Shown here piece after piece: positions 361-32,420 of a stretch of 64,000 bases of DNA. Source of the stretch: Escherichia coli (GTDB taxonomy: Bacteria > Pseudomonadota > Gammaproteobacteria > Enterobacterales > Enterobacteriaceae). Below the pieces are notes generated by a model that had not been told where the DNA came from, did no database searches, and worked only from the letters and a program-made list of their open reading frames with translations. The first letter of the stretch is position 1; the number at the start of each line of letters is the position of its first letter. The position numbers and the translations under genes are program-made. The stretch lies in assembly GCF_003334355.1 (NCBI RefSeq), contig NZ_QOWP01000009.1. The stretch is one strand, 5' to 3'.

Positions 361-3164
<2,804 letters not shown>

Positions 3165-3168
<4 letters not shown>

Positions 3169-4109
3169 GCGTGCGCTCCTTCATGACGACGAATGCGCGG
3201 GTCCAGCGCGGCGTTGAGCAAATCGACAATCAAATTACAGACCACAAAAACCACCACCATCATCAGCGTAAAGCACTGGATCACCGGATAGTCACGGTTA
3301 AAAATCGCCGACACCGCATAGCGCCCGACGCCCGGCCAGGCAAAGATGTTTTCGATAATCATCGTCCCGCCAATCAGTTCGCCGATGTGCATCCCCACGG
3401 CGGTGATCATCGGCAGCGAGGCATTGCGCAGGATGTGGCGACGTTCGGTCTGTTTGTCGTTCAGGCCGCGCAGACGCGCCCAGGTGACGTGACGCTGACC
3501 GGCGACGTCCAGCATACTGGCGCGCAGTAAACGCGCGTTAATCGCCAGCGACATAAAGGCAATGGAAACCGCAGGCAAAATGATGTGCTGCCAGCCGCCG
3601 TAACCCATCGCGGGTAGCCATTGCAGATACACCGAAAACGCCATCACCAGTAAAAACGCCAGCCAGAAGTTAGGCATCGACACGCCAAGAAACGCGATGA
3701 AACGTACGGCGAAATCCGGCAGACGGTCGCGATGGCGCGCCGCCCAGATACCGAGCGGTACGGAAGTGAGCAGAATTAATACCAGCGCCGCACCTGCAAG
3801 TTCCAGCGTGGCGGGCAGGAAGTTCAGCATATCGTCCAGTACCGGGCGTTGGCTGGCGAATGAGATACCAAAGTCAAGATGCAGCGCCTTCCACAACCAG
3901 GTGCCGTACTGGACGTACAGCGGCTGATCCAGTCCCAGCATGGTGCGGGTAGAGGCCAGCATCTCCGGCGTCGGCGGCAGGTTAGACAGACGCAAATAAT
4001 CGAGCGCCGGGTCGCCGGTACCGAGGCGCAGCATCAGAAAAATGATCACCGAGGCGGCGAGCACCATCGGGATCAGCAGCAGAAAGCGGCGTAATACGTA
4101 ACGCAACAT
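3165..4109 (-). CDS. nikB: Nickel ABC transporter permease NikB
   Basis: 314 aa hydrophobic ORF; overlaps nikC by 4 bp. Confidence 0.92.
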
Positions 4110-14957: not shown

Positions 14958-15106
14958 GATAAATTGCTCAATCCGCCAGATAACACATACTTGCAGGCGG
15001 TGATGTGAATTAAGTTAAGTGATAGACTATTTCATCATTTTTTTAGCTGCTATGTACATAGCGTTAACGCTGTGCCATGAAGCAACAGCGAGGAGTGTAG
15101 TCGCAA

Positions 15107-16603
15107 ATGGCGAAAGAAAAAAAACGTGGCTTTTTTTCCTGGCTGGGCTTTGGTCAAAAAGAGCAGACCCCGGAAAAAGAGACAGAAGTTCAGAATGAAC
15201 AATCGGTTGTAGAAGAAATCGTTCAGGTGCAAGAGCCTGCGAAGGCTTCTGAACAAGCCGTTGAAGAGCAGCCGCAGGCGCATACTGAAGCCGAGGCGGA
15301 AACTTTTGCTGCCGACGTTGTGGAAGTCACTGAACAGGTTGCTGAAAGTGAAAAAGCGCAGCCTGAAGCGGGAGTCGTTGCACAGCCGGAACCGGTCGTA
15401 GAAGAAACGCCGGAGCCAGTGGCTATCGAACGTGAAGAGCTGCCGTTGCCGGAAGACGTCAACGCCGAAGAGGTTTCGCCAGAAGAGTGGCAGGCTGAAG
15501 CGGAAACCGTAGAGATTGTCGAAGCGGCGGAAGAAGAAGCGGCTAAAGAAGAAATCACCGACGAAGAGCTGGAAGCACAGGCGCTGGCTGCCGAAGCGGC
15601 AGAAGAGGCGGTGATGGTGGTTCCTCCGGCAGAAGAAGAGCAGCCGGTGGAAGAAATCGCTCAGGAGCAGGAAAAACCGACCAAAGAAGGTTTCTTCGCG
15701 CGCCTGAAACGCAGCCTGTTAAAAACCAAAGAAAATCTCGGTTCCGGATTTATCAGCCTGTTCCGCGGTAAAAAAATCGACGATGATCTGTTTGAAGAGC
15801 TGGAAGAACAGCTTTTGATCGCCGATGTGGGCGTGGAAACCACACGTAAAATTATCACCAATCTGACGGAAGGCGCATCCCGCAAGCAGCTTCGTGATGC
15901 CGAGGCGCTCTATGGCCTGCTGAAAGAAGAGATGGGCGAGATTCTGGCGAAAGTCGATGAGCCGCTGAATGTTGAAGGTAAAACGCCGTTCGTGATCCTG
16001 ATGGTGGGCGTCAACGGTGTGGGTAAAACCACGACGATTGGTAAGCTGGCACGTCAGTTTGAGCAGCAGGGTAAATCGGTGATGCTGGCGGCGGGCGATA
16101 CTTTCCGTGCAGCAGCGGTTGAACAGCTTCAGGTCTGGGGTCAGCGCAACAATATTCCGGTGATTGCCCAGCATACCGGTGCGGATTCCGCCTCTGTTAT
16201 CTTCGACGCCATTCAGGCAGCTAAAGCGCGTAATATCGACGTCCTGATTGCCGATACCGCCGGACGCCTGCAGAACAAATCGCACCTGATGGAAGAGTTG
16301 AAGAAAATCGTCCGCGTGATGAAGAAACTCGACGTTGAAGCGCCGCATGAAGTTATGCTGACTATCGATGCCAGCACCGGGCAGAACGCGGTAAGCCAGG
16401 CCAAACTGTTCCATGAAGCCGTTGGTTTAACCGGCATCACGCTAACGAAACTGGACGGCACGGCGAAAGGCGGGGTAATTTTCTCGGTGGCTGACCAGTT
16501 TGGTATCCCTATCCGCTACATTGGTGTCGGCGAACGTATTGAGGATTTGCGTCCGTTTAAGGCGGACGACTTTATAGAGGCACTTTTTGCCCGAGAGGAT
16601 TAA
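15107..16603 (+). CDS. ftsY: Signal recognition particle receptor FtsY
   Basis: 498 aa ORF; acidic Glu-rich N-terminal domain followed by SRP GTPase domain (GVNGVGKTTT, DTAGR); first gene of ftsYEX. Confidence 0.95.
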   Translation: MAKEKKRGFFSWLGFGQKEQTPEKETEVQNEQSVVEEIVQVQEPAKASEQAVEEQPQAHTEAEAETFAADVVEVTEQVAESEKAQPEAGVVAQPEPVVEETPEPVAIEREELPLPEDVNAEEVSPEEWQAEAETVEIVEAAEEEAAKEEITDEELEAQALAAEAAEEAVMVVPPAEEEQPVEEIAQEQEKPTKEGFFARLKRSLLKTKENLGSGFISLFRGKKIDDDLFEELEEQLLIADVGVETTRKIITNLTEGASRKQLRDAEALYGLLKEEMGEILAKVDEPLNVEGKTPFVILMVGVNGVGKTTTIGKLARQFEQQGKSVMLAAGDTFRAAAVEQLQVWGQRNNIPVIAQHTGADSASVIFDAIQAAKARNIDVLIADTAGRLQNKSHLMEELKKIVRVMKKLDVEAPHEVMLTIDASTGQNAVSQAKLFHEAVGLTGITLTKLDGTAKGGVIFSVADQFGIPIRYIGVGERIEDLRPFKADDFIEALFARED

Positions 16604-16605
16604 CA

Positions 16606-17274
16606 ATGATTCGCTTTGAACATGTCAGCAAGGCTTATCTCGGTGGGAGACAGGCGCTGCAGGGCGTTACGTTCCATATGCAGCCGGGTGAGATGGCGTT
16701 TCTGACCGGTCATTCCGGCGCAGGGAAAAGTACCCTCCTGAAGCTGATCTGTGGGATTGAGCGGCCCAGCGCCGGGAAAATCTGGTTTAGCGGCCATGAC
16801 ATCACGCGTCTGAAAAACCGTGAAGTTCCGTTTCTGCGCCGCCAGATTGGCATGATTTTCCAGGATCACCATCTACTGATGGACCGTACTGTCTACGATA
16901 ACGTGGCGATCCCGCTGATTATCGCTGGTGCCAGCGGTGACGATATTCGTCGCCGGGTGTCGGCGGCACTGGATAAAGTCGGGCTACTGGACAAAGCGAA
17001 GAACTTCCCTATTCAGCTTTCGGGCGGTGAACAACAGCGTGTTGGCATTGCCCGCGCGGTGGTGAATAAGCCCGCGGTACTGCTGGCGGACGAACCGACT
17101 GGTAACCTGGACGACGCGTTGTCGGAAGGGATTCTACGTCTGTTTGAAGAGTTTAACCGCGTTGGGGTAACCGTATTGATGGCAACGCACGACCTCAACC
17201 TGATTTCACGGCGTTCCTATCGCATGCTCACCCTGAGCGATGGTCACTTGCATGGAGGCGTGGGCCATGAATAA
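16606..17274 (+). CDS. ftsE: Cell division ABC transporter ATP-binding protein FtsE
   Basis: 222 aa ORF; Walker [10 protein letters not shown] and LSGGEQQR signature. Confidence 0.95.
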
Positions 17275-18325
17275 GCGCGATGCAATCAATCATATTCGGC
17301 AGTTTGGCGGGCGTCTGGATCGCTTCCGTAAATCGGTCGGCGGCTCAGGCGATGGCGGTCGTAACGCACCGAAACGCGCGAAATCCTCGCCAAAACCGGT
17401 AAATCGCAAAACCAACGTTTTCAACGAACAGGTGCGCTATGCCTTCCACGGCGCATTGCAGGATCTGAAAAGCAAACCGTTCGCCACATTTTTAACGGTG
17501 ATGGTTATCGCCATCTCCCTGACGCTGCCCAGCGTCTGTTATATGGTGTACAAAAACGTTAACCAGGCGGCGACGCAGTATTATCCGTCACCGCAAATCA
17601 CTGTTTATCTGCAAAAAACGCTGGACGATGACGCTGCTGCGGGCGTGGTGGCACAGTTGCAGGCCGAGCAAGGCGTGGAGAAAGTGAATTATCTTTCTCG
17701 TGAAGACGCGCTGGGCGAGTTCCGTAACTGGTCTGGCTTTGGCGGCGCGCTGGATATGCTAGAAGAAAACCCGCTTCCGGCAGTGGCGGTGGTGATCCCG
17801 AAACTCGATTTTCAGGGGACGGAATCACTCAATACGCTGCGTGATCGTATCACGCAGATTAACGGCATTGACGAAGTGCGGATGGATGACAGCTGGTTTG
17901 CCCGTCTGGCGGCGTTGACTGGGCTGGTCGGGCGCGTTTCGGCGATGATCGGCGTATTGATGGTGGCGGCCGTGTTCCTCGTCATCGGCAACAGCGTACG
18001 TCTGAGCATCTTTGCTCGCCGTGACTCCATTAACGTGCAGAAACTGATTGGTGCGACGGATGGTTTCATCCTGCGCCCGTTCCTGTACGGTGGCGCACTG
18101 CTGGGATTTTCTGGCGCATTGTTGTCACTAATTTTGTCAGAAATTCTGGTACTGCGATTGTCATCGGCGGTTGCGGAAGTGGCACAGGTTTTCGGAACGA
18201 AGTTTGATATCAATGGTTTATCGTTCGATGAATGCCTGCTGTTGCTGCTGGTATGCTCGATGATTGGCTGGGTGGCAGCGTGGCTTGCCACGGTACAACA
18301 TTTACGCCACTTTACGCCTGAATAA
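17267..18325 (+). CDS. ftsX: Cell division ABC transporter permease-like protein FtsX
   Basis: ORF track 17240..18325; start at ATG 17267 ([12 protein letters not shown]...) gives 352 aa, overlapping the ftsE stop by 8 bp. Confidence 0.9.
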
Positions 18326-31253: not shown

Positions 31254-31993
31254 GTAACTGGCCTTATCCCCGCATCGTCGCTCATCGTGGCGGCGGTAAG
31301 CTGGCCCCGGAAAACACCCTGGCGGCAATCGACGTCGGGGCAAAATACGGTCATAAGATGATCGAATTTGACGCGAAGTTATCGAAAGATGGCGAGATCT
31401 TCCTGCTCCATGACGACAATCTCGAACGCACCAGCAACGGCTGGGGCGTCGCGGGTGAACTGAACTGGCAGGATTTACTGCGCGTGGATGCGGGCAGTTG
31501 GTACAGCAAAGCGTTTAAAGGTGAGCCGCTGCCGTTGCTTTCGCAGGTGGCGGAACGCTGTCGTGAACACGGGATGATGGCGAATATCGAAATCAAACCC
31601 ACCACTGGCACTGGACCATTAACGGGCAAAATGGTGGCGCTGGCGGCACGCCAACTGTGGGCCGGTATGACGCCGCCGCTGCTGTCATCGTTTGAGATTG
31701 ATGCTTTAGAAGCCGCACAACAGGCAGTACCGGAACTGCCGCGCGGTTTGTTGCTGGATGAGTGGCGCGACGACTGGCGCGAACTGACCGCGCGGCTGGG
31801 CTGCGTCTCTATTCATCTCAATCATAAGTTACTCGATAAAGTGCGAGTGATGCAGTTGAAAGACGCCGGACTGCGGATTCTGGTTTATACCGTCAATAAA
31901 CCCCAGCGCGCGGCAGAGTTGCTGCGCTGGGGCGTGGATTGCATCTGTACCGATGCGATTGACGTGATTGGTCCGAACTTTACGGCCCAATAG
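31250..31993 (+). CDS. ugpQ: Glycerophosphodiester phosphodiesterase UgpQ
   Basis: 247 aa ORF; GDPD family pattern; last gene of the ugp operon. Confidence 0.93.
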
Positions 31994-32420
31994 TTTTCAA
32001 CGGAATGTCAGGCTGCGGCGTGCTGGGCTGATTCAGCATGTCGCCGTTTCTCCTCTCCGGCAGCATATGCTGCTGATTCAACGAACTATCCGGATTACGG
32101 TTGCTGTTTAACATCCCGCCGTTGGTGTTGGGCAGCATTTGCTGCCGGGCGGGATTTCGCTCCCCCGGCTGTGACTGCAACACCCGCTGAGAATTATTGT
32201 TTATCTGGTTTTCTAAATGCTGCTGTTGCAACTGAGTTTGCGTTTTCAGTTGCTGATTCAGCATCCCTTTTTGCTGGATTTGCTGCGTTTGCATCTGGGT
32301 TTGCATCCGCTGCTGGCTGGGTATCTGATACCCCGGCTGGTTAGGGTTGTTCAGAGTATTAATGGGCTGTGCAAAGCCGACAAACGGCAGGAGTGCCGTA
32401 AGAATCAGAAGTCGTTTCAT
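31980..32420 (-). CDS. yhhA: Secreted Gln-rich protein YhhA (DUF2756)
   Basis: 146 aa ORF with signal peptide and Q-rich low-complexity repeats; 3' end overlaps ugpQ by 14 bp. Confidence 0.8.

Follow-up and report, generated by a model that had tools for sequence, protein, structure and literature searches.

In-frame length alleles in the acidic A domain of ftsY, a spurious Ser-rich antisense reading frame and the near-constant length of Gln-rich yhhA in Escherichia coli

The window, i.e., the whole 64,000-nt stretch of Escherichia coli chromosomal DNA analyzed in this study, carries two genes of known families whose products contain segments of strongly biased composition, ftsY and yhhA. For the first of them, the gene itself and the following parts of its product were delimited:

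15107..16603, plus strand: ftsY, encoding the SRP receptor FtsY, a 498-aa allele (ORF; TIGR00064; 100% DNA match to annotated ftsY in RefSeq).
15107..15148, plus strand: cationic N-terminal segment, aa 1-14 (MAKEKKRGFFSWLG), net charge +3, the first lipid-binding motif of the A domain.
15149..15694, plus strand: acidic low-complexity core of the A domain, aa 15-196, delimited by composition, charge and low entropy.
15692..15730, plus strand: amphipathic membrane-targeting sequence at the A/N junction, K-12 residues 195-207, which are residues 196-208 here (FFARLKRSLLKTK).

The TIGR00064 model (SRP-docking protein) matched FtsY with 386.2 bits (cut-off 260.7) over aa 223-494 and over its full length (model positions 1-279). 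Near-identical FtsY proteins carry PF02881 and PF00448, and in the family search no NCBIfam model covered the first ~220 FtsY residues. Upstream of ftsY lies rsmD, on the opposite strand. Downstream, ftsE (TIGR02673, 312 bits) begins 3 nt past the ftsY stop codon and is followed by the ftsX ORF, and the RefSeq annotation of the matching loci is concordant with this order. The protein thus has both marks of the FtsY family: an NG (SRP54-type GTPase) domain scoring above the equivalog cut-off and the ftsY-ftsE-ftsX context. A 714-nt ftsY query was matched in 5,426 of 5,426 complete E. coli genomes, with identity of up to 100% and annotation as ftsY. The names ftsY and yhhA, given to the two genes in the original prediction from the bare sequence, are correct (TIGR00064, NF007675 and RefSeq annotation).

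The closest known system is FtsY of E. coli K-12, with which the window allele shares the gene, its context (rsmD and ftsY-ftsE-ftsX) and a three-part layout composed of a cationic N terminus, an acidic core, and a membrane-targeting helix followed by NG. The two A domains are 97% identical, and the full-length PDB sequences 2yhs and 5gad match the window FtsY across residues 1-498. K-12 FtsY differs in length (497 aa versus 498 aa); at residues 156-159 the window allele reads EAQA, whereas K-12 FtsY has ETA. The substitutions of the window allele relative to K-12 FtsY are S33, V41, A45, G89 and E122.

The front end of ftsY had been described as dominated by Glu, Ala, Val and Gln and assigned to the A domain, and this description holds: residues 15-196 comprise 30% E, 16% A, 13% V, 9% Q and 8% P, with a net charge of -49. 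The acidic part in fact ends at aa 196 (nt 15694), just short of the flagged end of the biased region (15700). The entropy of the core is 2.7-3.2 bits in 40-aa windows, versus 3.6-3.9 bits for the NG domain, and FtsY leads the 112 ORFs of the window with 100 aa or more in peak Glu fraction per 60-aa window (38%; runner-up 17%). The layout is that of the enterobacterial-type A domain, with net charges of +3, -49 and +6 for aa 1-14, 15-196 and 197-222, respectively, and with both flanks invariant: aa 1-14 show no change across the aligned alleles except K6R in Shigella, and the membrane-targeting sequence of the A/N junction is identical in all alleles. An Rfam scan and a tRNA scan of the whole window placed nothing inside ftsY or yhhA.

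The published properties of this region derive from NMR, FRET and biochemistry performed on the K-12 protein, and they are extended to the window allele here by sequence identity. In K-12 FtsY, the A domain is disordered by NMR (PMC5094494) and the N terminus binds lipid (PMC5094494, PMC2928010). The A domain binds anionic lipids through its positively charged N terminus and through the membrane-targeting sequence that closes it at the C-terminal side (PMC5094494); the function of the latter sequence has been described in two studies (PMC2928010, PMC5094494). The negative centre of the domain binds SecYEG electrostatically and non-specifically, and tethers the NG domain near the translocon (PMC5094494). 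[quoted passage not shown] The majority of the E. coli FtsY chains in solved structures begin at residues 195-225, and only two full-length entries start earlier than residue 195. Based on these data, residues 15-196 of the window FtsY would form a polyanionic disordered tether between two conserved cationic, amphipathic lipid-binding motifs (aa 1-14 and the A/N junction). The acidic core would bind the positively charged cytosolic loops of SecY by charge, non-specifically, and so keep the NG GTPase domain by the translocon. With binding and tethering of this kind, the function of the core would require bulk charge and flexibility, and not an exact sequence.

Opposite the acidic core, the other strand contains a long open reading frame:

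15223..15558, minus strand: Ser-rich antisense ORF, 111 aa from a GTG codon, judged non-coding (145 codons from stop to stop, 15226-15660).

This ORF, which the original prediction had already dismissed as a spurious by-product of the ftsY repeats, indeed exists, and its translation consists of 32% S, 18% A and 14% T. Among the same 112 ORFs it has the highest Ser fraction per 60-aa window (38%; runner-up 28%). Position 1 of its codons pairs with position 2 of the ftsY codons, and its composition follows directly from the sense codons: Glu (GAR) is read as Ser (TCY) 33 times, Ala as Ala 20 times, Val as Thr 16 times, Pro as Gly 10 times and Gln as Cys 8 times. In this frame a stop codon is possible only opposite a Tyr codon, or opposite a His or Gln codon that follows a T-ending codon. 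The first 230 codons of ftsY produce only four such stops, all of them TGA opposite a T-ending codon plus a Gln codon. When the codon order of the A domain was shuffled, the longest open antisense run averaged 94 codons and 9% of the shuffles reached the observed 145 codons; the antisense ORF is therefore no longer than the codon content of ftsY predicts.

There is practically no chance that this ORF is a real overlapping gene inside ftsY. It is true that it is open in all nine E. coli ftsY alleles examined and that it shares its third codon positions with ftsY, hence substitution patterns cannot exclude coding. Since, in addition, Ser, Ala, Thr and Gly codons are four-fold degenerate, a dN/dS-type test cannot discriminate in this case. 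Against a gene stand the codon mapping and the shuffles, together with the family search, the signal scan and the annotation: the ORF has no NCBIfam match, no Shine-Dalgarno sequence in the 14 nt preceding its GTG (CCAGCTCTTCGTCG), no promoter-like site in the signal scan and no annotation in the RefSeq genomes at the fetched ftsY loci. Its length also follows that of ftsY, shifting with every ftsY indel (105 to 163 codons), and the codon-aligned antisense frame of ftsY, for a similarly trivial reason, remains open over a still greater length (235 codons). On this evidence, the ORF was rejected as a gene. It resembles in all respects the spurious antisense ORFs found opposite biased genes, in which the sense codons present cannot form stops on the opposite strand and shuffles reproduce the open frame. 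The frame most probably stays open by accident of Glu, Ala, Val and Pro codons, which read as Ser, Ala, Thr and Gly.

The second gene with a biased segment, yhhA, lies on the minus strand of the window and comprises the following features:

31980..32420, minus strand: yhhA, encoding a DUF2756 family protein of 146 aa (NF007675; RefSeq annotation yhhA).
32370..32420, minus strand: probable Sec signal peptide of YhhA, aa 1-17, preceding QP, with a basic n-region, a hydrophobic core and small residues at -3/-1.
32169..32315, minus strand: Gln-rich low-complexity segment of YhhA, aa 36-84, with MQTQMQTQ and QQ runs, where most of the rare in-frame duplications and deletions occur.
32028..32147, minus strand: degenerate ~24-aa duplication in YhhA, aa 92-131 (direct repeat D2, spacing 72 nt), with ML[NP] motifs.

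YhhA matched NF007675 (DUF2756) with 265 bits (cut-off 136) over its full length, residues 1-146 aligning with model positions 1-145. Homologues of YhhA carry PF10956, and both in the window and in RefSeq genomes the gene is located between ugpQ and ggt. The protein corresponds to DUF2756/PRK10350 (E. coli YhhA) in its full-length match, its ugpQ/ggt position and its 98-100% identity with the commonest E. coli forms, and nothing material differs. Three finished genomes carry the window yhhA DNA without any difference, and in an exact cluster look-up the exact protein sequence was absent from a large protein collection.

The original prediction had called yhhA Q-rich and repetitive. The first term is accurate, as Gln constitutes 20% of YhhA overall and 41% of residues 36-84, and the protein has the highest Gln fraction per 60-aa window (37%; runner-up 17%) among the 112 ORFs. 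The second applies only loosely, because no true repeat array is present: Tandem Repeats Finder identified 9- and 12-nt units in just 2.1-2.6 copies. In the mature part of the protein, Gln, Asn and Pro account for 22%, 14% and 11% of the residues, respectively, with a single aromatic residue and no Cys; the putative signal peptide is invariant in 18 alleles. Judged from these sequence features, YhhA, with its high content of Gln, Asn and Pro, is probably disordered and either periplasmic or secreted. Among the search results for DUF2756, the literature reported no function. For the E. coli gene, an RpoS holoenzyme binding site has been located by genomic SELEX in the ggt-yhhA spacer, which puts a promoter region recognised by RpoS upstream of yhhA (PMC5493296), yhhA-ugpQ has been listed as a convergently overlapping transcript pair (PMC12288877), and in a preprint YhhA is claimed to be a validated EPEC effector secreted by type III secretion (10.1101/364117).

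Both genes had also been predicted to be prone to length variation between strains, and for ftsY a cross-strain comparison revealed common in-frame indels. In a sample of 60 genomes, picked at even steps down the match ranking, the 714-nt query spanned 714 nt in 37 genomes, 711 nt in 20, and 705, 699 and 594 nt in one genome each. The fetched loci contained intact annotated ftsY genes encoding proteins of 497, 495, 493 and 458 aa. Two independent one-codon deletions were distinguished: (i) the K-12 type, EAQA to ET-A (residues 156-159), and (ii) PPAEEE to PPV-EE (residues 173-178). The frequencies of the alleles were determined across the 5,426 complete genomes with junction-specific probes of 42-45 nt, for which a 28-nt seed was required. 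The window-type sequence at the K-12 indel site was found in 3,690 genomes (~68%), the K-12-type deletion in 841, the PPV-EEQ deletion in 849 and a three-codon AAE deletion in 140. The window-type and K-12-type probes, which target the same site, leave ~895 of the 5,426 genomes unmatched, probably as nearby SNPs break the 28-nt seed; the allele counts are therefore lower bounds. Accordingly, no fewer than 1,830 of the 5,426 genomes (34%) have an ftsY that differs in length from the window allele, which for this gene bears out the predicted variation. Roughly 62% of genomes share the overall length of the window ftsY, as estimated from the 60-genome sample, and some genomes with the window-type site have indels elsewhere.

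The large protein collection adds E. coli/Shigella FtsY alleles of 499, 501, 502, 504, 514, 529 and 542 aa, so that the rarer alleles span 458 to 542 aa; many variant FtsY and YhhA proteins of this collection occur as single sequences on short contigs of metagenomes or draft assemblies, and a part of them may be assembly errors. The FtsY cluster obtained from the exact cluster look-up was contaminated by FtsE sequences and had little value for judging lengths. A 516-aa "FtsY" (P0012) was rejected as an insertion allele, as it has an N-terminal extension and reads like a frameshift in an A8 run combined with an upstream start call. In the E. coli/Shigella alignments, every ftsY indel seen is a multiple of 3 and is located within residues 87-176, and the NG domain contains no indel among the aligned alleles. 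This zone and the direct repeats within or near it are:

15365..15634, plus strand: indel-prone zone of ftsY, aa 87-176, into which all E. coli/Shigella length differences fall (alignments and allele counts).
15358..15378, plus strand: direct repeat D8, left copy; its right copy lies 132 nt (44 codons) further on, at 15490-15510.
15477..15487, plus strand: direct repeat D14, left copy, CG(C/G)CAGAAGAG; the right copy is 120 nt away.
15597..15607, plus strand: direct repeat D14, right copy.
15521..15553, plus strand: 15-nt tandem unit GAAGCGGCGAAAGAA, 2.2 copies; strain SCU-125, without one unit, has the 493-aa allele.

The "repeats" attributed to ftsY in the original prediction are thus a low-complexity sequence with many short imperfect direct repeats, and not real tandem arrays. 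Even at the lowest allowed score, Tandem Repeats Finder reported a single 15-nt unit in 2.2 copies (15521-15553), and the direct repeats in the rest of the core are short, imperfect and dispersed. The end points of the ftsY deletions and duplications match the independently found repeats D14 (120 nt), the 15-nt tandem and D8 (132 nt), and the homology at these end points is only 4-9 nt. In strain PSJ-07, ftsY has an exact 120-nt (40-codon) deletion between the D14 copies, with the junction CCAGAAGAG/GCGGTG, which results in a CDS of 1377 nt encoding 458 aa. In the 542-aa E. coli allele (P0136), the protein alignment places a 44-aa duplication between the D8 points; the spacing of the repeat and this alignment together suggest that D8 gave rise to the duplication. 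The 514-aa allele contains EAEVVAQP three times in tandem, and in the Shigella flexneri alleles a Glu (GAA) run grows from three to up to seven. Both one-codon deletions have an adjacent substitution (EAQA to ETA and PAEEE to PVEE), and they are therefore not simple losses of a repeat unit.

The structures of the alleles fit a model of slippage or recombination, with slippage as the presumed mutational mechanism. The narrow codon set of the core (GAA/GAG, GCN, GTN, CAG and CCG) would yield many short direct repeats, and replication slippage or (illegitimate) recombination between them would generate deletions and duplications. Only in-frame changes of the core would survive, resulting in several co-circulating length alleles with a fixed length of NG. 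The core may tolerate such gains and losses because its function would rest on bulk charge and flexibility.

It is very improbable that the length polymorphism of the A domain is itself selected, whether through a length or charge of the tether that tunes SRP targeting in each lineage or as a contingency-like locus. Three length alleles do reach 2.6-15.6% of complete genomes each, and the indels cluster in aa 126-176, a segment which takes in the less mobile residues 152-161 (PMC5094494). A speculative extension, to which we attach very little weight, is that the clustering around these transiently structured residues might reflect lineage-specific tuning of SecYEG tethering, in which case the 495-, 497-, 498- and 499-aa alleles would be functionally different. 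The common alleles, however, differ by just 1-3 of ~180 residues, and clonal inheritance alone can explain their frequencies. Most of the A domain is also dispensable in vivo: FtsY-NG+1, which is devoid of residues 1-195 and retains only Phe196 of the A domain, complements FtsY depletion, and targeting is just 26% less efficient (PMC2928010). Simple-sequence contingency loci share with ftsY and yhhA repeat-mediated indels within a coding region, but the repeats of these two genes are short, imperfect and dispersed, and their indels are all in frame, with no on/off switching. The long homopolymer or tandem tract and the frame-shifting units that define such loci were found in neither gene: Tandem Repeats Finder detected no long simple-sequence tract in ftsY, the largest arrays of the two genes have 2.1-2.6 copies, and none of the aligned ftsY alleles displays frameshift switching. 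In-frame indels that arise at repeats and are tolerated by the core remain the preferred reading of the ftsY alleles.

For yhhA, the predicted length variation is weakly supported. In both of two samplings, each of 60 evenly spaced genomes, 59 had a CDS of 441 nt, and the single exception in both is strain A16, in which a deletion takes the 3' ends of yhhA and ugpQ. Rows that seemed 1 nt shorter differ upstream of the start codon, and their annotated CDS still has 441 nt. Identity over the CDS is below 95% in only 9 of 5,425 matching genomes. Length variants are rare and come chiefly from the far larger protein collection (~15 billion proteins), in which E. coli YhhA variants of 96-163 aa are found, all in frame and mostly as single-member clusters. 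Their indels are located inside the Gln-rich stretch or between the two QQ(H)MLP copies. YhhA of E. albertii has 122 aa and lacks 24 aa between the QQ(H)MLP copies (cluster of 29 members; alignment of P0052 and P0107), a deletion that agrees with direct repeat D2 and its 72-nt spacing. The gene is therefore mutable at its repeats, yet in practice monomorphic in length among E. coli strains. The same slippage process as in ftsY would give the in-frame indels of yhhA, which stay rare in E. coli, with one 24-aa deletion carried by E. albertii.

Alternatively, the rare length variants, particularly in yhhA, could be sequencing or assembly artefacts, with the true lengths fixed. Most yhhA variants are indeed one-member clusters, many of them on contigs of a few kb, and the 516-aa "FtsY" resembles the product of a homopolymer frameshift plus an upstream start call. 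We nevertheless regard this explanation as improbable, given that the ftsY alleles recur in 140-849 finished genomes, that the yhhA variants P0017, P0037 and P0041 recur on 5-7 contigs, and that the 122-aa form of E. albertii is represented by 29 member sequences. Moreover, every variant is in frame and has its end points at repeats, a pattern which random error would not produce.

The observation underlying the original prediction was thus confirmed, and its interpretation was partly supported, because yhhA is practically monomorphic in length among E. coli strains. We hold with high confidence the account as a whole, i.e., (i) two known genes with biased segments, (ii) an FtsY tether with in-frame alleles presumably driven by repeats, (iii) an accidental antisense ORF and (iv) a probably disordered and exported YhhA with rare indels. 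Nothing in it is new: both genes are ordinary members of known families on every testable feature, and the result agrees with the disorder published for this domain of FtsY. Useful refinements consist of a codon-level explanation of the antisense ORF, counts for the ftsY alleles and the different behaviour of ftsY and yhhA across strains. Annotators should disregard the Ser-rich antisense ORF, and differences of 1-3 codons in the length of ftsY among strains should be treated as normal polymorphism and not as errors. The outcome matters little: the features confirmed here, for the E. coli SRP receptor and for a small uncharacterised protein, are textbook ones. The natural ftsY alleles of 458 aa to 542 aa are ready-made deletion and duplication variants of the A domain for studying tether length in co-translational targeting.

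The antisense strand of ftsY, the gene for the SRP receptor FtsY (15107-16603, (+), 498 aa), contains a reading frame aligned with the sense codons that is open over long stretches:

15719-16414 and 15050-15283, (−), codon-aligned antisense frame of ftsY

This frame runs for 235 codons without a stop and is interrupted by only three stops over the entire gene, and opposite the NG GTPase domain it produces an antisense ORF of 231 aa, which is longer than the Ser-rich antisense ORF (15223-15558, (−), 111 aa) that the original prediction had singled out opposite the acidic A domain. The frame is open because the sense codons TTA, CTA and TCA, which read as stops on the opposite strand, are scarce, so that the codon-aligned ORF is explained by sense-codon content just as well as the one flagged initially.

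Downstream of ftsE (16606-17274), the ftsX gene was delimited as a mechanical ORF:

17240-18325, (+), mechanical ORF of ftsX

Starting at 17240, it overlaps the end of ftsE by 35 nt, and the true ftsX start is probably an internal ATG several codons further along, which is not unusual. The 90%-identity protein cluster holding the window FtsY comprises 11,145 members, among which are FtsE proteins of 222 aa that come from E. coli, Citrobacter and Cedecea. The presence of FtsE looks like a clustering artefact, with fused ftsY-ftsE gene calls perhaps forming the bridge, and the statistics of this cluster require caution.

Across the whole 64-kb window, the sRNA RyhB (RF00057; 37599-37663, (+), 83 bits) was the sole Rfam match at the gathering threshold, and a tRNA scan found no tRNA genes. 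The 3' ends of the ugpQ (+) and yhhA (−) coding regions overlap over 14 nt (31980-31993), and the pair is listed as a convergent "excludon" candidate (PMC12288877). In E. coli A16, ugpQ and yhhA have both lost their 3' ends to a deletion:

2545-3361 of the A16 locus (L005, NZ_CP028758.1, otter isolate), deletion locus, corresponding to window positions ~31400-32200

In the annotation of this strain ugpQ and ugpE are also frameshifted, which suggests either a decaying ugp locus or an assembly of poor quality.

Two homopolymer runs lie closely 3' of the ftsY start codon:

15117-15124, A8 run, within ftsY codons 4-11
15131-15137, T7 run, within ftsY codons 4-11

In the repeat search these runs paired as a small inverted repeat (labelled I3). 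One finished E. coli genome encodes a 516-aa "FtsY" (P0012, WXP39172.1) with the sequence MYIALTLCHEATARSVVANGERKK followed by RGFFSW. Judged from its sequence, this protein reads like the product expected if the A8 run had lost 1 nt, the gene call having been rescued by an upstream ATG (15052); the cause would be either an error in sequencing or a genuine frameshift.

The FtsY proteins of Shigella flexneri (P0191, P0241 and P0249) carry a K6R change, and the Glu run aligned to window residues 139-146 is extended from EEE to 4-7 Glu, giving proteins of 499-502 aa. The 499-aa form was found on 776 contigs and is therefore a lineage-typical allele.
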